A stretch of DNA of 64,000 bases. Origin: a virus. Its lineage: Duplodnaviria; Caudoviricetes. The position numbers and the translations under genes are program-made. The notes beneath the pieces are model-generated. The model was not told the DNA's origin. It searched no databases and saw nothing but the letters and a program-made list of their open reading frames with translations. Below are positions 46,734 to 63,395 of the stretch, piece after piece; the first letter of the stretch is position 1, and every line of letters begins with the position of its first letter. The DNA lies in the IMG/VR virus record IMGVR_UViG_3300032332_002377; one strand, given 5' to 3'.

Positions 46734-47006
46734 TTATTTATCAAGTGTTAAATTTTTTCTATACTGTTTAATGCATGTTGTGTAGATGTTTTTAGGTAGT
46801 CTTTCTACTATATCGATTATCTTATTTTTTAAGCCAAAATCAAACTTATCAGTTGGAACAGCTTTGACAGACATCTCTGGAAGAGCAAGAAAATTGTATT
46901 CATTTTGCTTAGTCTTCTCCATAAAAACAAAAAGTTGACCAGCGTAGATACCAGTTGTAACAGCATATACAAAGCCTTTTTGAGGGTGTTTTTTGTTAAA
47001 GAACAT
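46734..47006 (-). CDS. Hypothetical protein
   Basis: 90 aa ORF overlapping the upstream gene. Confidence 0.55.
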   Translation of the reverse strand: MFFNKKHPQKGFVYAVTTGIYAGQLFVFMEKTKQNEYNFLALPEMSVKAVPTDKFDFGLKNKIIDIVERLPKNIYTTCIKQYRKNLTLDK

Positions 47007-47865
47007 TTTTATAATTTTCTACAAATCTTGCAACAGCATCTTTTAATGATTTAGAGAGACTGGGTAGCTGTAGTCCTAGTTTTTTTATTTTTTTATCTGA
47101 AAGAACACAGTTTGACCGCTGTGCAACAATATCAAGCTCTGAAATATTTACTACTTTCCAATCATGATTTACTAGCTCATGAAATGATAAGTAGTCTGCA
47201 ATTAATTTTCCTGTTATTACTCCTGGGTTTACTACATTCAAAGGACCAGATATATCTAAAAAGTTTTTATGCTTCAATAGCTTTTCTATGAAAATATTAA
47301 AATCATCTGTATTAGTGCCGCTATTTTTTAATTCTATGATATTATTATATTTTAAAATTTTATAAATTAAGTTTTTTGGTACAACCTTTGCATTAAATGG
47401 CATTCTTACTCTTAAAGTAATCGCGTTAGATTTTCTTAATATTACTTCACACATATGTTTTGTTAATGAGTAATAACTGCTATTAGTATTATGTAGTCCA
47501 AAATTAGGTTCATCTTTTTCAGTAAATTCTTTTTCATATCCAGTGTATATGCATCCTGAAGAAACATTAATAAATTTTATCTTTAATTGATTACATATAT
47601 TGTTTATCTGTGCTGGGACTGATACATTATAAAAGAGGCATTTTTCGCGTTCAATTTCACATTGATCGACATTAGGTGATCCAGTAAAGCCTGAGCAATT
47701 TATAATTGTATTGTAAATATTGCTTGTCAAATACTCAGAAAGCTTTTTTCTATCTGTATAATCAATGTCTTTTTTATCTATCAATGTAACATTGGTTTTA
47801 ACTGACTGCAGATGACTAAAAAGGCTGGTACCGATAAAGCCTTTACCAAGAATAAGAACTTTCAC
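46996..47865 (-). CDS. NDP-4-keto-6-deoxyglucose 3,5-epimerase/4-reductase (RmlD/UER1-type SDR)
   Basis: GKGFIG, GFTGSPNVDQCE, SSGCIY, YSLTK (YxxxK), LRVRMP. Confidence 0.82.
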   Translation of the reverse strand: MKVLILGKGFIGTSLFSHLQSVKTNVTLIDKKDIDYTDRKKLSEYLTSNIYNTIINCSGFTGSPNVDQCEIEREKCLFYNVSVPAQINNICNQLKIKFINVSSGCIYTGYEKEFTEKDEPNFGLHNTNSSYYSLTKHMCEVILRKSNAITLRVRMPFNAKVVPKNLIYKILKYNNIIELKNSGTNTDDFNIFIEKLLKHKNFLDISGPLNVVNPGVITGKLIADYLSFHELVNHDWKVVNISELDIVAQRSNCVLSDKKIKKLGLQLPSLSKSLKDAVARFVENYKNVL

Positions 47866-49703: not shown

Positions 49704-50549
49704 TTATAGATCTTCTAGAAGTTTTTCCAAGCTCTCGTCAGTTGCTGTCTTAACAGGCTTGGCTGTAGTTTCAACTTTAGCCACTACAGGCAGTTCAGTC
49801 TTTGGTTTGACTTCAACAACTGCATCTTCTTCTACATCTGACTTGCAATGATAATGTTTGTCCAGCATATCCTTTAGCTCATCATAGGACTTAACAGTAA
49901 TATACGATTCGAGATCAAAAGCACTCTTTAGAATCTTATCGTAATTATCTTCATCAAGACCTTCAACTTCTTTGGGAGTTGTAAACTTTGAAGATACATA
50001 TGTCGGATAATCTCCTTGCTTTTCTACCTTAATCTTTAAATTAACTCCTTTGGGAGAAAGATCGAAAATACGAGGGCCAAGCTCTTCTGCATCTTCGCCT
50101 TGAATACCATCCATAATAATCTTGTTTAACTGGCGACCAAAGCGAAGAATCTTCACCTTGTTATTGTTGTCACTATTAACTGGGTCATTAATAACATAAC
50201 AGTTAACAAGCCAACGCTCTGTTCTCACAATACTCTTAGCTTTTTCTTTATCCTGCTCAGTCCCATTTCTAAGAACACGGTAACGCTCTTCAGCAATAGG
50301 ATCACGCTCATTCCATGTAGTTGGGCTTGTGAGTGTAATTAATTGGCCAGTAGAAAAGCTGTTCCAGCCATGAGAATAATAATGCAAAAATGTCTTAGCG
50401 GGGTCCTTAATATTAGGCAGAAGTCGTACTGTATATGTATTGCCAGGTTCAGTACGCAAAAAATCTTTTTGCTTATTTGCTCCGCTAGAAGTCTCTTTAG
50501 TTAATGCGCTCTTGATACTTTCAAACATTGAAGAAGTTAGTGAATTCAT
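49704..50549 (-). CDS. gp32: Single-stranded DNA-binding protein (T4 gp32-like)
   Basis: VRLLP, YVINDP, KVKILRFG, FDL...G.NLKIK, YVSSKF, KSYDELK, acidic tail SLEKLLEDL. Confidence 0.9.
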   Translation of the reverse strand: MNSLTSSMFESIKSALTKETSSGANKQKDFLRTEPGNTYTVRLLPNIKDPAKTFLHYYSHGWNSFSTGQLITLTSPTTWNERDPIAEERYRVLRNGTEQDKEKAKSIVRTERWLVNCYVINDPVNSDNNNKVKILRFGRQLNKIIMDGIQGEDAEELGPRIFDLSPKGVNLKIKVEKQGDYPTYVSSKFTTPKEVEGLDEDNYDKILKSAFDLESYITVKSYDELKDMLDKHYHCKSDVEEDAVVEVKPKTELPVVAKVETTAKPVKTATDESLEKLLEDL

Positions 50550-50555
50550 ATAAAA

Positions 50556-51233
50556 CTATGATATATGAGATTTAGAGATGTTCAACTCTTTTTTTAAATT
50601 ATTTTTAAGTTTATCTAAACCATTAATAACAAGATGCTTACATTTAGAAGAATTTAGAAATTTTATTTTTTTAAGATTTAATTTTTCTAAAAAATCAGAT
50701 TCAAACATAAAGCGCAAAACTTCTGTATCAGATTTTGATAAAACATTATTTAAATTGTCAAAACTTAAGATTGAGTATAGGTTAATGTCTCTATTTTTTA
50801 AGTGTAAAAGGAAGGAAAACATATTGTTTGTCTTGTGTGACAAATATTCTGTTAAATGTAAGTTGTTGTCTTTGCAAAAGTTGTAAATATATATGAGTGA
50901 TTTTTTAGTAAAAGCTAATTGTTCTTCAGAATCGGGATCTAGATTACTTAAATTTTTGCAATGTATGGTATATGCTTTTACTGCTTTGAGTGAATTAAAA
51001 TAGCATAGATCAAAAAATTGCTCATCATTATATAGTTTATAGGAAGCAGTAAAAAACGCTAGCGGGTCAATATCCTTATGCTTGTTAAAAAAGAAGCTTA
51101 ATTTCTTGAGACAAGCACCTGCCTTTTCATCCAAGTCATTAAAGTTTTTTCTTACTGTATATGGCTTGTTTTGCGTTGTTCTTGAGGCTTTGAGATGTAG
51201 GTTGTAAAGGTATTTTTCGTAATCAGAAATCAT
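50556..51233 (-). CDS. Hypothetical replication protein (possibly gp59-like helicase loader)
   Basis: Basic 225 aa protein beside ssb; assignment from position and size only. Confidence 0.4.
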   Translation of the reverse strand: MISDYEKYLYNLHLKASRTTQNKPYTVRKNFNDLDEKAGACLKKLSFFFNKHKDIDPLAFFTASYKLYNDEQFFDLCYFNSLKAVKAYTIHCKNLSNLDPDSEEQLAFTKKSLIYIYNFCKDNNLHLTEYLSHKTNNMFSFLLHLKNRDINLYSILSFDNLNNVLSKSDTEVLRFMFESDFLEKLNLKKIKFLNSSKCKHLVINGLDKLKNNLKKELNISKSHIS

Positions 51234-51436
51234 TTATAATTACGCCATTTTAATCTAGCAAACTCTTTTTTCAACTTTTTACGTTTGCTTGGCTTATTAA
51301 AATATCTTCTGTATCTAAGCTCTTCTATAATTAAAGATTTTTGTACTTCTCTGCTAAATTTATTATACATCTTGTCGAAATACGGCTTTTCAACACTCTT
51401 GCTTTTGTTTAATATTACTTCAGATTTAATAATCAT
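51230..51436 (-). CDS. rpsU: Phage-encoded ribosomal protein bS21 homolog
   Basis: FDKMYNKFSREVQKSLIIEELRYRRYFNKPSKRKKLKK matches the bS21 pattern (F.R.V....I..E.R.R.Y/F.KPS..R..K); 68 aa, very basic. Confidence 0.85.
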   Translation of the reverse strand: MIIKSEVILNKSKSVEKPYFDKMYNKFSREVQKSLIIEELRYRRYFNKPSKRKKLKKEFARLKWRNYK

Positions 51437-51714
51437 AGTCTGTTAAAGTTCTTAGAATTTAAAAATTTCATTATATATTTACTCTTATAAAGCGTAGAAT
51501 CAAAAAATAAAAAATATTTTAACGCGTCGTAGTTATTTTTAAAATCACAATAGTCTACTAATAAATCTCTAAACCGCTGTTCTTTTAATACTATTAAAAA
51601 TACATTAGCTAAATTTATTTTTTTAGGCTCAAGCAGAGCGCAAAATGTACAAAATGATAAAAATAAATGGTTTATTTCTATTTCTGATATTTTTTCAGCA
51701 GGATTTATGCTCAT
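51433..51714 (-). CDS. Hypothetical protein
   Basis: 93 aa ORF coupled by ATGA overlaps. Confidence 0.55.
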   Translation of the reverse strand: MSINPAEKISEIEINHLFLSFCTFCALLEPKKINLANVFLIVLKEQRFRDLLVDYCDFKNNYDALKYFLFFDSTLYKSKYIMKFLNSKNFNRL

Positions 51715-52601
51715 GTTATTGGGTATAGAAGCTTGCTAAGCTCTAAGAATATTTTTGTTATTTTTCCACCAGCAACAGATGCATCGCCGCCGCCATCAAA
51801 AACTTTCTTAGCAAGAACTCCAAGATCTACAGGACACTCTCTTTTTTTTCTAATGCTTACGCTCGATGATGCTAAGTTGACACTAATAGCAATATCACAG
51901 TCATATGTTTTTATAATCTTATCACAAATTTCAGATGGATATATGTTATTGAACGTACTACACACTACAGTATTATTACTACTAATCTTCAAATTGCCCT
52001 TAAAGATTTTAAGGGATTTAAAAGTTAATTCTATTTTATCGGTAATATTGGTTATTAAATTTTCTTGCTGCTCAGTAAACCCTGCAAACCCATCTTTAAA
52101 TGTATTAAAAAATGTTGTAAGCTTGTCGTTATTAAATGAGCTAAAAAGATAATGCAATTTTAAAGATTCGGAAAATTTAAGCTGATAACTATCGTAATCA
52201 TCTATTAGCGAAATTAAAATTTTTTCTTCTCTAGTAAAAGGCGTCTTTAGTTTTTCTTTAAGTTTTTTATAAAGCAATAAAGTACAGCTTGATGCTTCTT
52301 GCGATTCTTGTCTTAAATTTTTGAATAATGTCTGTGTTACATTACGGTGATTAATATACACAACGTTAGGTAGATCAACGATATCACGAATTGCGTCAGT
52401 GATAGCTATGTCGCATATATAAATCTTTTTGTACTGTTCTTTGTTTTTTAAATTTAGAAAGTCGTCCTTAATTGTTTTCTCAGAAGTGCGTGTGTGGCCA
52501 AAATCTAATCCAATATATTTTCTTAATAAGTAATAACAACCAGCGCCGTCAATATCACAATCAGTAAATAAATATAGGTCTTCCCTGATGTTAGAGCTCA
52601 C
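51711..52601 (-). CDS. DHH/DHHA1-family protein with degenerate catalytic motifs
   Basis: DCDIDGAGC, ICDI, INHR at the DHH position, IDDYD, SVSIR, GGGDASVAGG. Confidence 0.75.
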   Translation of the reverse strand: MSSNIREDLYLFTDCDIDGAGCYYLLRKYIGLDFGHTRTSEKTIKDDFLNLKNKEQYKKIYICDIAITDAIRDIVDLPNVVYINHRNVTQTLFKNLRQESQEASSCTLLLYKKLKEKLKTPFTREEKILISLIDDYDSYQLKFSESLKLHYLFSSFNNDKLTTFFNTFKDGFAGFTEQQENLITNITDKIELTFKSLKIFKGNLKISSNNTVVCSTFNNIYPSEICDKIIKTYDCDIAISVNLASSSVSIRKKRECPVDLGVLAKKVFDGGGDASVAGGKITKIFLELSKLLYPIT

Positions 52602-52606
52602 ATTCT

Positions 52607-52634
52607 ATTTTACTAAAAAAAGTTGCTAAATCAA
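52607..52634 (-). promoter_or_regulatory. Sigma70-like promoter of the DHH-hypothetical-bS21 operon
   Basis: TTGATT-16-TAAAAT-5nt-GTG. Confidence 0.65.
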
Positions 52635-53956
52635 CTTAATGTAAGGCTATTCAGAGTAGCAATAGAAGAAGTAGAGGCTTCCGTATCGTTGTTGATCTCG
52701 TCTTCTGTGAGAGTTAGTGTAGAGTAATCAATCTTCATATTACAAACACCATAGTTTTCACCAAATCTATTCTTCATTAGACCCATCTTAATAACGCCTA
52801 ATTCTTTATCTGTGTCTTCTTGCCAAATACTCAATATTACATCTGCAGTGTGTCCAAGTCCCATAGATTCCGATAAAGTATTGAGTCCAGGGTCACTTAT
52901 GTCATAACCAGATCTATTTAGCTGTGTTGCAGAAATGATTGGGAAATCAAAAGAATAACTTATAGCTCTCAATTGTTCAGTTACATTCTTAACTCTTTCA
53001 TATGTGTTTGTTCCAATAGTTGAATGAAGTAAGTTAATATAATCAACTACTAGTGCATCAATCTTAACACCTTGATCTGTAATTTTCTTAATAAACGCTT
53101 TAAGATGATTACATGTAATTGTAGATGGTGGAAATTCTTTAATAATTAGCTTTGCTTTAGAATTTTCATTTTTGTATTCTTGTAGCTGCTGAAATAGCGT
53201 AGATGATTCAGATTTTAATTGATGAAAAGGTATTTTAGTTATATTTGCACAGATACGCTTTGCATATATAAGCTCAGGCATTTCTAAGGAAACCAACAAA
53301 ACAGTTTTGCCTTGAGAAGCAATATTAGCAGCTACGTTACCAAGAAAGATACTCTTTCCAATATTAGTTTCACCAGCAAAAACATATAATGCTCTTCCTT
53401 TCTCTAGAAACCCTCCACCCATCTTTTTATCAAGCCACTTCCATTTAGAAGGAATATATCTCTCTTCTGTATTTAAATCATCGACAATAACAGAAACATC
53501 TTCCAATAAGTCTAACCCTATATTAGTTGCAAGGCAAATATTACATGCCTTTTCAAATTTTTGCAATACAGCTGCTGTGTCAACCTTACCTTTCGTAATA
53601 TCATCAACAGTTTCTAGCATTGTAGTATATACTGCTTTCTCTTTTAAGAAAGATTCTGTATTAGCAGTGAGCTCATCAATGTTATAGCTTTTGTCAAAAT
53701 CCTTGATTACGCCAACAGCTGCTTTGAAGCTAGCTTTGAGTTCATCGGTAACAAGATGTGCTTTGATTTCTGTTACATTGGGCCGTGTACCGCGTGTAGA
53801 ATAAAAGTCTTTAATAACATCAAAAATATTTTTAATATCTTTACTTTTAAAGTATTCTGGCTTGAGATGATCAATAATAGAAGCAAGATATGAGTCGTCG
53901 GTTAGCGATTTATAGAGTATAATATTCTCAAAAAAATCTAAATCTAGCTTCTCCAT
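52631..53956 (-). CDS. gp41: Replicative DNA helicase (T4 gp41 / DnaB-like)
   Basis: GETNIGKS, VSLEM, IIKEFP, VVDYINL, SATQLNRSG, KNRFG; start placed at ATG 53956 after TATAAT. Confidence 0.95.
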   Translation of the reverse strand: MEKLDLDFFENIILYKSLTDDSYLASIIDHLKPEYFKSKDIKNIFDVIKDFYSTRGTRPNVTEIKAHLVTDELKASFKAAVGVIKDFDKSYNIDELTANTESFLKEKAVYTTMLETVDDITKGKVDTAAVLQKFEKACNICLATNIGLDLLEDVSVIVDDLNTEERYIPSKWKWLDKKMGGGFLEKGRALYVFAGETNIGKSIFLGNVAANIASQGKTVLLVSLEMPELIYAKRICANITKIPFHQLKSESSTLFQQLQEYKNENSKAKLIIKEFPPSTITCNHLKAFIKKITDQGVKIDALVVDYINLLHSTIGTNTYERVKNVTEQLRAISYSFDFPIISATQLNRSGYDISDPGLNTLSESMGLGHTADVILSIWQEDTDKELGVIKMGLMKNRFGENYGVCNMKIDYSTLTLTEDEINNDTEASTSSIATLNSLTLS

Positions 53957-53963
53957 AATTCTA

Positions 53964-54638
53964 TTATACACCTACTTTTGAATATTCCCTAATAAATCTT
54001 TCTTCACTATCAACAAACAATTTATTATTAATATCAAGAAGCCCAGGAGAACTATGAATTACCCATATAGGCGCAACACCAAGCTTTAGCTTCATATCAT
54101 TAGCATCAAGTGAGCTTGCAATGTCGTAGTGATGAAAAGTATAGTTTTCATTAAACTTCCAGTTTGTATTTTTTATGCTTGAAGTTTTAATGCTAAGAAA
54201 GAGCCCATCAAGAACAGCTACTCTGCAGGGAGTTACACCAAAGCTCGTCATAGCAATTTCCTTGGGACCTGCAGGGTGTGCGACAGCACCTCTCAGATTG
54301 TCGCTATGAAATCCTCCACACATCAAATGCCACAAAGCAGGTTTTTGAATCTTAGGATTAATGCCACCTGCAAGCCCAACAATATCAAATTTCTCATGAG
54401 CTTCTTCAAGCTTCTCACAAACCGCAAGATCATCAATATAAACATCATCATGAACAAATACAATATATTCATACTTATCTTTACACTTCTCTAGAAAGTC
54501 ATTATAGCGTTTGCTCAGCCCTTCAGTATTGTGCTCGTTAAAGGCCATATATACTTTACTTCCAAGCTTTGCTACTGATTTATAGTATGGTGTGTGTTTA
54601 ATGTCGTCTCTTGTAACACTATAGAATGCTGTTTTCAT
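53964..54638 (-). CDS. GT-A fold glycosyltransferase (GT2-like)
   Basis: VFVHDDVYIDD, DIVGLAG, VAVLDGLF, FNENYTFHHYD. Confidence 0.8.
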   Translation of the reverse strand: MKTAFYSVTRDDIKHTPYYKSVAKLGSKVYMAFNEHNTEGLSKRYNDFLEKCKDKYEYIVFVHDDVYIDDLAVCEKLEEAHEKFDIVGLAGGINPKIQKPALWHLMCGGFHSDNLRGAVAHPAGPKEIAMTSFGVTPCRVAVLDGLFLSIKTSSIKNTNWKFNENYTFHHYDIASSLDANDMKLKLGVAPIWVIHSSPGLLDINNKLFVDSEERFIREYSKVGV

Positions 54639-55321
54639 TATGTAAAAAATGGTGAATTGGATTTGAATGTACCTACAGATGTCAGACCTTCTACAGTTTG
54701 TAAGTAGAGTACACCCTCTTCTAGAGGTTTATAATCGCTATATTTAATAGATGAAAAATTATTGGTAAGGAAGTCAGCATAGAGTGTACTGCCTGAACGA
54801 GCAAGATATACGTGATTGTTCTTAGAATTTAAAATCCAAAGACCGAAGTTACCGCGAAGCATCGAGAGCGCGTTGCAGATAATATTAGTTTCATTTTTTT
54901 CACTTTTACTATAGTGATCTATTAGAGCGGGTATCAATGATGAATCAACATCATTAATTGTTTTATATTTTTTAAGTAGTGCTCTAAGTTCTTTCTCATT
55001 GCTCAAAACACCATTGTGCGCAATATACCATTTGCCTGTATTAAAAGGGTGCGATGTTGCATGTGAGTATGCTCTGGCTGCAGATGTTGGAGCTTGTGAG
55101 TGTCCGAGATAGTTTTTAAAGTCGTTGAAACTCTTTCTTTTATTGTGTTTCAATTCAAGATATAGTTTATCTGTTAGCTTAAAGACGCCTGCAGATTTAA
55201 TAGATGCATGTAAAGATTCATCAATCATTATGGATCCATATGCAAAATCACCGCGAGCCCTGTTTTTAGCATAGAGCTTTACATACGTCTTATATTCACT
55301 AGATCCAAATATTCCGCACAT
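54638..55321 (-). CDS. Class II (Ntn) glutamine amidotransferase
   Basis: N-terminal MCGIFG, RG, LGHSQAPT, SHPF, AHNGVLSN, VDS. Confidence 0.88.
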   Translation of the reverse strand: MCGIFGSSEYKTYVKLYAKNRARGDFAYGSIMIDESLHASIKSAGVFKLTDKLYLELKHNKRKSFNDFKNYLGHSQAPTSAARAYSHATSHPFNTGKWYIAHNGVLSNEKELRALLKKYKTINDVDSSLIPALIDHYSKSEKNETNIICNALSMLRGNFGLWILNSKNNHVYLARSGSTLYADFLTNNFSSIKYSDYKPLEEGVLYLQTVEGLTSVGTFKSNSPFFT

Positions 55322-55329
55322 TACGTAAT

Positions 55330-55358
55330 ATTATAGTATAAAATAATAAATATTTCAA
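55330..55358 (-). promoter_or_regulatory. Sigma70-like promoter of the amidotransferase gene
   Basis: TTGAAA-17-TATAAT-8nt-ATG; overlaps a divergent late box. Confidence 0.65.
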
Positions 55359-56352: not shown

Positions 56353-57339
56353 ATGAGAGTAAAGATAGTTGGTTGCGGTCTTTCAGGGGTTACAGCAGCG
56401 ATCCTTTTGCAAGACAAAGGACATGAAGTAGAAATATTCGAATCGAGAACACATATAGGTGGTAACTGTTATGATAGTAATGTAGCAGGTACTTTAATGC
56501 ATAGCTACGGTCCACACTGTTTTCATACAGATGATGAAGATGTAATGAATTTTTTGAGTCGTTATACTGGTTGGTTAGATTTTCACTTAAGACCAAAAGG
56601 CAACACAGAATTAGGCTTGATATCATTGCCTTATAGTAAAACAACTATCGAAGAGTTGAAAAGAGAATTAACACAAGAAGAAATTATCAAATATATTTTT
56701 AAAGGATACTCTGAAAAACAGTGGGGTGTATCGTTTGATCAAATCCCTAAGAGTATTATTAGCAGAATTCCAAAAACAGCAGATAAGGTAAATCCAACTT
56801 GGTTTGAGGGGCAAAAATATCAATGCGTACCTCTCAAGGGATATACTGAAATGTTTAAGAGCATGCTTGAAGACATACCTGTACACCTGGGTGTAAAGCA
56901 GAATGAATGGAAAAAGGTAGAAGCAGATTTAACCATATTTACAGGTAAAATAGATGAGTATTATGATTATATAAATGGCTGGCTGCCCTACAGGTCTTTA
57001 TATTTTGAGCATACTCTAAGCTATAAAAAACAAGAACATTTTATTATAAATCAAAATAAAAAAGAAGTGCCATATACAAGAAGTTATGACCATAGTTACA
57101 CACATTTTAATCATAAGGGTCCAACAATTATAACAAAAGAATTTTCTATAGCTCATGATAAGAATAATATACCATTTTATCCGATGCCTTTTGGTGAAGG
57201 AGCAGAAATTTATAATAAATATGGTGCGCTAGCTAAAAAAGAGAAGAATGTAATTTTTCTTGGGCGTCTTGCTACTTACAAGTATCTAGATATGTGGATG
57301 GCAGTAAGGCAGGCTATGCAAAAAATAGAGCTAGTTTAA
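56353..57339 (+). CDS. glf: UDP-galactopyranose mutase
   Basis: VGCGLSG, HIGGNCYD, HSYGPHCFHT, YSEKQWG, GYTEMF, LPYRSL, PFYP, GRLATYKYLDM. Confidence 0.93.
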   Translation: MRVKIVGCGLSGVTAAILLQDKGHEVEIFESRTHIGGNCYDSNVAGTLMHSYGPHCFHTDDEDVMNFLSRYTGWLDFHLRPKGNTELGLISLPYSKTTIEELKRELTQEEIIKYIFKGYSEKQWGVSFDQIPKSIISRIPKTADKVNPTWFEGQKYQCVPLKGYTEMFKSMLEDIPVHLGVKQNEWKKVEADLTIFTGKIDEYYDYINGWLPYRSLYFEHTLSYKKQEHFIINQNKKEVPYTRSYDHSYTHFNHKGPTIITKEFSIAHDKNNIPFYPMPFGEGAEIYNKYGALAKKEKNVIFLGRLATYKYLDMWMAVRQAMQKIELV

Positions 57340-62159: not shown

Positions 62160-62187
62160 ATTATAAAAGAACTAAAAAAATTATCAA
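62160..62187 (-). promoter_or_regulatory. Sigma70-like promoter of the DNA polymerase gene
   Basis: TTGATA-16-TATAAT-6nt-GTG. Confidence 0.7.
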
Positions 62188-63395
62188 GGATTAACTGTAT
62201 TGAGATTGACACGTTCTTTAGATTTGTACGGAAAGTTATATAGCTCGTAGTATTTATTGATGTTTTCTTCGTTTTCTAAAAATCTAGATTCAGCAACTTT
62301 TCTTGCTTTAGCACATGTATTCATGTATTTGCCTTTCTTGGAAAGCGTTGTAACAACTTGATCAACCATCTCATCACCCGTCTTGAATTTTATAGGTGCA
62401 TCTTCATACGTACATAAATCCTGACATGCAATTGGAATGCCATAACATGACGCCTCAATATACTTTAAGTCGCTCTTCGCTTTGTTGAAAGTGCTATCCT
62501 GTAGAGGAGCTACCATCATGTTGCATTTTAAATTGTAAATTTTTTCGGGGTAGTTATATAGCTGCGACCATGGGTGGAATTCTATCTTACCTTCGCGTAC
62601 AAAAGGAGTTAATCTAAGAGGAAATGCACCGAGAAATACCCATTGAAACTTATCTACTGTCTTAGCAATTACATCAAATACATGTGCGAAGTCATCATTT
62701 TGATTTACTCTATTATCTACGTCAAAATGTGCGCCTGACCCGGCATACAAAATACGAGGACGCTTTTCATATGCATCATAATTATCAGAGATCTTCTTTT
62801 CATTATAAAAATTACCCATCCACCATTTGGGTGGGTAATTAGGAATCACTGTTACATTCTGATTTTTAGTCTTGGATTTATAATAATCGCGCATAAAATT
62901 ACATGTAACTGTAACTTCATCGCACATTTCCATAATTTCTTGACAATTTTTTCTGATTGACGGATCAGTAAAAGCTGGTTTAAATTTGTTATAGTCAGGA
63001 ATATCCTCACTAAAAACTAAGTCATCTATTTCGTAGATGATCTTAAAGCCCATTTGTTGAGAAATGCGCTTCAAGTGTCTGACAAACTCAAGCTGATGAC
63101 TAGTAGCTTGCCTCTGAATACGTACAGTCTTAACGCCGCGATAATAATTAGGATCAAGCACCATAACAGTGCTGCCATGTACTATCATTTTTTGATGCGC
63201 ATTTAGTAAGTGCTCTGGCCAAATCATACGCCAAAAGCCACAGCCACTATAATCAGCATAATAATTAAGAGAGCGTGTAAGGTTTAATTCAGGTGGCACT
63301 GGTAGATCTTGTTTTGGTGCTACGGGTGCTTGTGGAGCGGCATATGCTGGAGCAAAAGGTGAAGCAAAGGGAGAGACAAATGGGCTTGAAAACAT
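62184..63395 (-). CDS. GT-B fold glycosyltransferase-like protein
   Basis: SGCGFWRM.WP, YEIDD, VIPN, VAPL...FNKAKSDLKYIEA..GIP. Confidence 0.72.
   Translation of the reverse strand: MFSSPFVSPFASPFAPAYAAPQAPVAPKQDLPVPPELNLTRSLNYYADYSGCGFWRMIWPEHLLNAHQKMIVHGSTVMVLDPNYYRGVKTVRIQRQATSHQLEFVRHLKRISQQMGFKIIYEIDDLVFSEDIPDYNKFKPAFTDPSIRKNCQEIMEMCDEVTVTCNFMRDYYKSKTKNQNVTVIPNYPPKWWMGNFYNEKKISDNYDAYEKRPRILYAGSGAHFDVDNRVNQNDDFAHVFDVIAKTVDKFQWVFLGAFPLRLTPFVREGKIEFHPWSQLYNYPEKIYNLKCNMMVAPLQDSTFNKAKSDLKYIEASCYGIPIACQDLCTYEDAPIKFKTGDEMVDQVVTTLSKKGKYMNTCAKARKVAESRFLENEENINKYYELYNFPYKSKERVNLNTVNP

Follow-up and report, generated by a model that had tools for sequence, protein, structure and literature searches.

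A distinct viral bS21 subfamily in a family of Shine-Dalgarno-poor, T4-like freshwater phages: gene setting, distribution and possible roles

What does a ribosomal protein do in a phage whose own genes make little use of Shine-Dalgarno (SD) sequences? Phage bS21 is the commonest viral ribosomal protein, and we know of no study in which its function has been shown. The question is raised by a small gene in a 64,000-nucleotide stretch of viral DNA, referred to here as the window. In bacteria, bS21 is a late, tertiary binder of the 30S subunit that supports or sequesters the anti-SD (PMC7797042; PMC10491246). A preliminary description of the locus, made from the sequence alone, had suggested as a new idea that the phage protein replaces the host bS21 and biases ribosomes away from SD-led host mRNAs and toward leaderless or translationally coupled phage mRNAs. 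Replacement of host bS21 in favour of viral transcripts had, however, been proposed earlier (Mizuno 2019, PMC6375957; Jha 2021, PMC7797042; Chen 2022, PMC9723584), so that the leaderless twist alone is new.

The identification of the gene as a bS21 homologue was borne out by our searches. It corresponds to an exact open reading frame on the minus strand (Table 1), and its product exceeds the cut-offs of both Pfam PF01165 Ribosomal_S21 (34.6 bits; cut-off 27) and the NCBIfam equivalog TIGR00030 S21p (33.6 bits; cut-off 28.95). It also matches PHROG 21469 'ribosomal protein S21' (E 6e-5), and a phmmer search of the PDB retrieved 35 distinct bS21/mitochondrial bS21 chains at E <= 1 and nothing else of note. 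Residues 41-50 (RYRRYFNKPS) fit the R-x-R-R-x-[FY]-x-KPS/T core of the family, and Lys48, Pro49 and Ser50 were invariant among 13 close homologues. The AF2 model, calculated with 25 homologues (pLDDT 89.9), contains helices at residues 11-15, 17-34, 36-44 and 49-67. When the PDB was searched with this model in Foldseek, nothing significant was retrieved, and the highest-ranking ribosomal entry was a chlororibosome chain (E 9, TM 0.54); for a helical protein of 68 residues that folds on rRNA, such a search carries no information. Judged by homology, the open reading frame is a genuine phage-encoded ribosomal protein homologue.

Comparative data indicate that the gene is under purifying selection, with dN/dS values of 0.01-0.23 among seven orthologous genes (0.04 and 0.01 in the two pairs with unsaturated synonymous sites, 0.06-0.23 elsewhere). 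Twelve homologues at 71-97% identity were present in public metagenomes. The gene was intact in contigs from two more runs of the study that produced the source record (X2, at least 99% identity; X3, about 98%) and in a freshwater metagenome from a different study (X4, at least 99%), and none of the contigs covering the locus in these three data sets skips it. The public runs listed as containing the stretch included no RNA run.

The C-terminal tail of 18 residues is very basic (pI 11.2; ten basic residues and one acidic), and the C-terminal domain has a pI of 11.2-11.6 in the four orthologues for which it was computed. Relative to Ser50 the tail aromatics lie at +9 (Phe59), +14 (Trp64) and +17 (Tyr67), the first two being invariant, while the +12 position, found by offset count and not by structural alignment, is occupied by Leu62. 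The anti-SD-sequestering bS21 of the Bacteroidetes, known from F. johnsoniae (PDB 7JIL; Jha 2021, McNutt 2023), resembles the phage case in that bS21 is set in SD-independent translation, and it offers a conceptual model for control of anti-SD availability. The window protein nevertheless has neither the signature Tyr54 of the F. johnsoniae protein (Ser42 + 12) nor its weakly basic tail, and the window gene has no counterpart of the strong SD through which rpsU autoregulation works. The F. johnsoniae chain 7jil_z was not matched by the phage protein at E <= 1, the chain being in the searched PDB set.

The preliminary description had also read the promoter style as a hint at a non-Bacteroidetes host, and our data agree with it, no host being named. 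Early sites take the form TTGAnn-N16-TAnnnT. The -7 motif of Bacteroidetes, TAnnTTTG, shows no enrichment at gene starts (0 against 2.15 expected). Taken together, the promoter motifs, the very basic tail without Tyr at Ser+12 and the missing match to 7jil_z argue against a Bacteroidetes-type system. Profile searches and phylogeny, which had been proposed for host inference, delivered family membership and a viral clade, but bacterial similarity was too weak and scattered for a host call. Among the matches listed in a scan of genome contigs, 15 were bacterial, all weak (30-50% identity over partial segments) and falling in Sumerlaeota, Gemmatimonadota, Cloacimonadota, Ignavibacteria, WOR-3 and others. 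A profile search of 1.84 billion proteins gave 24 hits, which were metagenome proteins, and in a protein atlas only viral S21 clusters lay near the window protein (score 0.87; a lead only).

The phage itself could be placed more closely. PHROG hits in the window include a T4-type sheath (gp18), baseplate wedge, terminase (gp17), primase, gp32, a DnaB-like (gp41-like) helicase and a family-B polymerase (gp43). The polymerase shares about 31% identity with its counterparts in cyano- and pelagimyophages, and the large terminase subunit TerL shares 40% with the one from Sinorhizobium phage phiM9. GC content is 33% across the window, of which ORF tiling assigns 98.7% to coding sequence, and the related phage records, of 128-230 kb, are T4-like. 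Neither blastn of the region nor tblastn of bS21 against 50,697 GenBank phage records gave a match, and no close cultured relative was found there. On this gene content, we assign the source to the T4-like myophages, as a distant, freshwater member.

The setting of the gene between a helicase, a DHH-family gene and a single-stranded DNA-binding protein gene was recovered as first described, all of these being on the minus strand in the order amidotransferase, glycosyltransferase, helicase, DHH phosphoesterase, orf93, bS21, orf225 and gp32 (Table 1). The DHH and orf93 genes overlap by 4 nt by coordinates, and the GTG start of the DHH gene is kept in relatives. The product of orf225 had no family in Pfam or PHROG searches, and orf93 adjoins the orf225 region in relatives with and without bS21 alike. 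Because both junctions of bS21, with orf93 and with orf225, are ATGA overlaps, the gene has no promoter or leader of its own. No SD is found at its start, and since the TGA of orf93 overlaps the bS21 ATG, bS21 is probably translated by coupling to orf93. In T4 the gene order is 33-59-32, and orf93 and orf225 were considered as analogues of gp33 and gp59; this candidate was rejected, as hhalign comparison of the family alignments with gp33 and gp59 of the Pelagibacter phage HTVC008M gave probabilities below 1%. Genes for sugar modification, namely glycosyltransferases, a GlmS-like amidotransferase, a PHROG 9677 protein and an NDP-sugar epimerase-like protein, are interspersed among the replication genes and kept in relatives (Table 1).

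Table 1. Features of the bS21 region and of related loci (window coordinates unless a locus is named)
Feature	Coordinates	Strand	Remarks
Candidate sigma70-like site, TTGAAA-N17-TATAAT	55330..55358	minus	top consensus site of the region; 11/12 matches; 8 nt before amidotransferase ATG
DnaB-like replicative helicase	52631..53971	minus	PF03796 E 4e-30; PHROG 19 E 5e-77
Candidate sigma70-like promoter, TTGATT-N16-TAAAAT	52607..52634	minus	ends 5 nt before DHH GTG; -35 hexamer overlaps helicase stop codon
DHH-family phosphoesterase	51711..52601	minus	GTG start; heads coupled DHH-orf93-bS21-orf225 string; PHROG 4771 E 8e-11
orf93, no assigned function	51433..51714	minus	TGA stop overlaps bS21 ATG (ATGA)
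bS21	51230..51436	minus	68 codons/68 aa, pI 10.35; KPS at residues 48-50; short basic C-terminal domain (KRKKLKKEFARLKWRNYK)
orf225, no assigned function	50556..51233	minus	ATG overlaps bS21 stop (ATGA)
gp32-type single-stranded DNA-binding protein	49704..50549	minus	PF08804 E 5e-17; PHROG 224 E 2e-37
Sugar-modifying genes	53964-54638, 54638-55321, 56353-57339, 62184-63395, 46996-47865		
Examples of starts preceded by TAAATA	5121, 5728, 15559, 23025, 23507, 23568, 36532, 38911, 42232, 45031		motif often TAAATAAT
State B bS21, examples	L082:6004-6207, L087:5998-6201, L107:6001-6204		about 30 more loci

A sigma70-like promoter upstream of bS21 had been claimed as well, and this claim stands in part. 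The candidate before the DHH gene is conserved: in four relatives (L023, L024, L005 and L006) with only some 60-70% identity in the DHH protein, the -35 hexamer does not vary, the -10 hexamer reads TAAAAT, TAAGAT or TAATAT, and the 5-nt spacing is kept. On the other hand, this nearest promoter-like site lies two genes and 1.2 kb upstream of bS21, none stands directly at the gene, and generic sigma70 consensus sites are no more frequent in the region than chance predicts (28, with 32 +/- 5.7 in shuffled sequence). The site of the region that comes closest to consensus precedes the amidotransferase gene, which heads the minus-strand replication gene string. The more restricted arrangement TTGAnn-N15-17-TAnnnT-N4-9-start was found at 9 of the 61 starts in the window, about 30-fold enriched over the 0.28 expected, and TTGAnn-N15-17-TAnnnT lies ahead of 20 of 156 starts in the relative G006. 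Sites of this class mark the starts of replication genes, several of which are GTG, in the window as well as in G006, L023 and L024. The gene for bS21 is probably the third cistron of a translationally coupled message that depends on host RNA polymerase, and for this message we infer early or middle timing.

The reported absence of SD sequences was confirmed for the window in the sense that it is SD-poor. A GGAG/GAGG/AGGA core at -18 to -4 was found at 7 of 61 gene starts, with 3.1 expected by chance. For three of these seven genes the 128-kb relative G006 has a homologue; the SD-like sequence is gone from two of these homologues and persists in one, 17 nt upstream and apparently within the end of the preceding ORF. 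The possibility that the strong SD-like sequences are regulatory, as at rpsU in Flavobacteriia, was rejected on this comparison. The motif TAAATA, in turn, starts at -16 to -11 in 20 of the 61 cases and ends 4-8 nt before the start codon in 15 (0.28 expected), mostly at structural genes. This placement matches the T4-type late promoter and would give leaderless or near-leaderless late mRNAs.

A phage family was assembled from IMG/VR with gp32 and bS21 as probes, and three states of the gene were distinguished in it. In state A, represented by about 35 IMG/VR loci whose gp32 is 50-89% identical to that of the window, bS21 has the same position as in the window, flanked by orf93 and orf225, and is usually ATGA-coupled. 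In state B (35 loci) it lies in the structural module, among portal, gp15-like sheath stabiliser and fibre genes, and looks like a late gene, being preceded by a TAAATA of its own, in most loci at 5 nt from the ATG. By gp32 relationship, state B phages are members of the same family: in the complete 229.7-kb record G007, which is in state B, gp32 is 59% identical to that of the window. In the third state (L026-L040) the order helicase-DHH-orf93-orf225-gp32 is kept without bS21, and orf93 is ATGA-coupled straight to orf225. Likewise, no bS21 was detected by profile search in the 127-kb record G002 (61% complete), which contains site A and the site-B neighbourhood; the positive control gave E 9e-27. 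The orf93/orf225 junction holds bS21 in some phages, is empty in others and is filled in G007 by an unrelated gene of about 240 codons (L122, G007:C1:143000-158000), so that it behaves as a cargo slot within a translationally coupled operon.

The bS21 proteins of states A and B group together in a single clade (SH-like support 0.97), to which neither the bacterial bS21s sampled nor the bS21 of HTVC008M belong. The proteins of this clade make up a distinct viral subfamily, described here for the first time and recognised by a short, very basic tail ending in KW[KR][YN]Y, unlike the Bacteroidetes type. In the gp32 tree a single branch separates the bS21-less loci from all others. A single loss of bS21 is favoured by midpoint rooting and by rooting on a very long outgroup branch, a single gain being the alternative. 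A recent insertion of bS21 private to the close relatives of the window phage was rejected, as the same site is filled in much more distant relatives. Two further observations concern the bS21-less phages: in one subclade (L026-L030, L040) the DHH gene is shrunk to about 75-90 residues with weak similarity (about 8700-9060 in L027), and in the other (L031-L038) a full DHH gene stands behind a late-type TAAATA and not behind a sigma70-like site.

The two positions of bS21 bear on the reading that this small, very basic and helical protein has been taken over to bind RNA or DNA within the replication module and acts off the ribosome. The location of the window gene between helicase/DHH and gp32 would suit such a role, and a non-ribosomal partner of bS21, the OLE RNP, has been reported (PMC12054373). 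The occurrence of the same subfamily in the structural module of related phages implies, however, that the function is not tied to the replication genes, and the residues of the bS21 core, KPS among them, do not vary in a protein that passes a curated equivalog cut-off. We consider an extraribosomal role very improbable.

The family also made it possible to compare the presence of bS21 with the use of SD sequences. In state A, SD cores precede 2% of genes in close relatives (background 4.9%) and 5.7% in distant relatives (background 4.5%); the values are 3.5% in phages without bS21 and 5.9% in state B, each against a background of 5.4%. TAAATA-N4-8-start accounts for 9%, 12%, 15% and 25% of genes, respectively, with a background below 0.7% in all four groups. 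SD cores are thus found at 2-6% of genes in the relatives' loci and at 11% in the window, as compared with 44% of the genes of HTVC008M. The co-occurrence of bS21 with leaderless architecture, put forward as a check of the original idea, did not appear as strict coupling in either direction, because the bS21-less sister phages are equally SD-free and HTVC008M combines a bS21 with 44% SD-led genes. Since the sister clade keeps both the synteny and the SD-free, promoter-at-start layout without bS21 at either of the two known sites, the protein is not required for the SD-free programme. Hence, the stronger reading of the locus as a reprogramming system should not be taken as established, and the family comparison weakens the leaderless twist of the replacement idea. 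The maintenance of bS21 through deep divergence and its move between temporal classes point to a real benefit, though not an indispensable one, and the protein looks like a useful accessory that is not obligatory for the SD-free programme. In HTVC008M (L057-L059, NC_020484), TAAATA occurs exactly 5 nt before the start codon in 10 genes in spite of the 44% SD cores, and promoter-at-start late genes may extend beyond the SD-free family.

The KW[KR][YN]Y-tailed subfamily has so far been found only in SD-free phages. A more specific proposal is that it constitutes a specialised initiation subunit that co-evolved with T4-like phages in which early and late promoters abut start codons, the tail holding the 16S 3' tail off the mRNA exit path so that 5'-terminal or coupled starts gain over SD-led host mRNAs. 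We regard this version as unlikely; if it were true, the tailed bS21 would give a virus-made ribosome variant dedicated to leaderless translation. E. coli ribosomes without bS21 and uS2 have been reported to translate the leaderless cI mRNA better (2023 preprint, PMC10491246), which counts against a simple rule that bS21 promotes leaderless translation, unless the phage tail behaves differently.

Several known systems invite comparison. The bS21 of HTVC008M (PMC6375957) and of pelagimyophages (Zaragoza-Solas 2020, PMC7029224) resembles that of the window in its size (67-68 aa), in belonging to a T4-like aquatic myophage of about 33% GC, in its location outside the structural genes and near replication genes, and in being under purifying selection, and the replacement hypothesis has already been stated for it. 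In contrast, the HTVC008M protein shares only 31% identity over 49 residues with the window bS21 and takes a separate branch of the bS21 tree, and its gene stands alone behind a 150-nt spacer. The huge phages of Chen 2022 (PMC9723584) are likewise low-GC freshwater myoviruses with a conserved bS21 and a proposed substitution favouring phage transcripts, and a position of bS21 near a DNA helicase occurs in that survey. Their genomes, however, are of 293-331 kb, the predicted hosts are Bacteroidetes, and the gene lies on the reverse strand inside a TerL/MCP/protease/portal block, is expressed with late genes and encodes the Bacteroidetes-type aromatic Tyr54. The window phage differs from these clades in being T4-like, in carrying bS21 co-directionally within the helicase-DHH-...-gp32 early/middle operon, and in having a very basic tail with Leu at the offset equivalent to Tyr54. 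The best experimental precedent for bS21-based specialisation comes from Francisella tularensis, in which, according to the abstracts of two reports (PMC9578407, PMC13374519), alternative bS21 paralogues on one ribosome pool change the choice of mRNAs for translation. These proteins are cellular and not viral, and those abstracts claim no connection with leaderless translation.

The homology, selection, operon structure and distribution described above point to a functional phage-encoded bS21, long inherited in one freshwater T4-like myophage family, and its tuning of initiation toward SD-less phage messages as an accessory advantage is a reading to which we give roughly even chances. The DHH-orf93-bS21-orf225 message would start at the host-type (sigma70-like) promoter that abuts the DHH start codon, and bS21 would probably be made early or in mid-infection. 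By analogy with the bS21 of HTVC008M, which enters E. coli 70S ribosomes (PMC6375957), the protein probably takes the exchangeable host site on the 30S platform by the 3' end of 16S rRNA, and it would do so by filling free 30S sites or displacing the host protein. Its short, very basic tail, with Phe59 and Trp64, would presumably reach the vicinity of the anti-SD and the mRNA exit. From there, we infer, it would probably tune initiation toward SD-less phage messages, whose start codon is at or near the 5' end or is reached by coupling.

Two other readings also place the protein on the ribosome. The phage may add bS21 simply to keep host 30S subunits complete and active during infection, raising all translation with no selectivity for phage mRNAs, on the premise that bS21 is loosely bound, is added late during assembly and may be in short supply in lake bacteria that grow slowly. 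Its late, tertiary binding would agree with this premise, and so would the preference of viruses for easily exchangeable ribosomal proteins: of those detected in uncultivated viral genomes, nearly all of aquatic origin, 88% are bS21 (PMC6375957). Presence and absence of the gene among otherwise identical relatives also fits a dispensable booster. A plain substitute would not, however, be expected to have an invariant tail motif of its own, and the phage protein is far from the sampled cellular bS21s (at best 30-45% identity over partial matches, among the matches listed). Moreover, HTVC008M bS21 did not support E. coli ribosomes but strongly impaired them, with about 5% activity in vitro compared with about 75% for tagged E. 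coli bS21 (PMC6375957). We consider a non-selective booster of this kind rather unlikely.

The same in vitro result can be taken as a sign that phage bS21 is dominant-negative on the 30S subunit, blocking SD-anti-SD pairing or otherwise disabling host initiation, while phage messages escape as they need no SD. The background frequency of SD cores in the phage family and the early/middle operon of the window gene would be in line with such a shut-off of host translation. In relatives, however, the same subfamily lies among the structural genes behind a motif of late type, and a shut-off factor would be expected earlier; moreover, the authors themselves cautioned that the low activity with HTVC008M bS21 may reflect mere incompatibility with E. 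coli (PMC6375957). A shut-off role appears quite unlikely, and the tuning of initiation toward SD-less phage messages is the reading that we prefer.

What is new here is modest but concrete and comprises a distinct viral bS21 subfamily, the anatomy of its operon and coupling, and a natural series of presence, absence and position in one SD-free phage family. Close relatives that share an SD-free, promoter-at-start-codon layout have bS21 within an early operon, within a late module or not at all in the sequence searched, and this provides a natural comparison that is missing from the published cases. Such a series would allow a direct test of the effect of a viral bS21 on the choice of mRNA starts.
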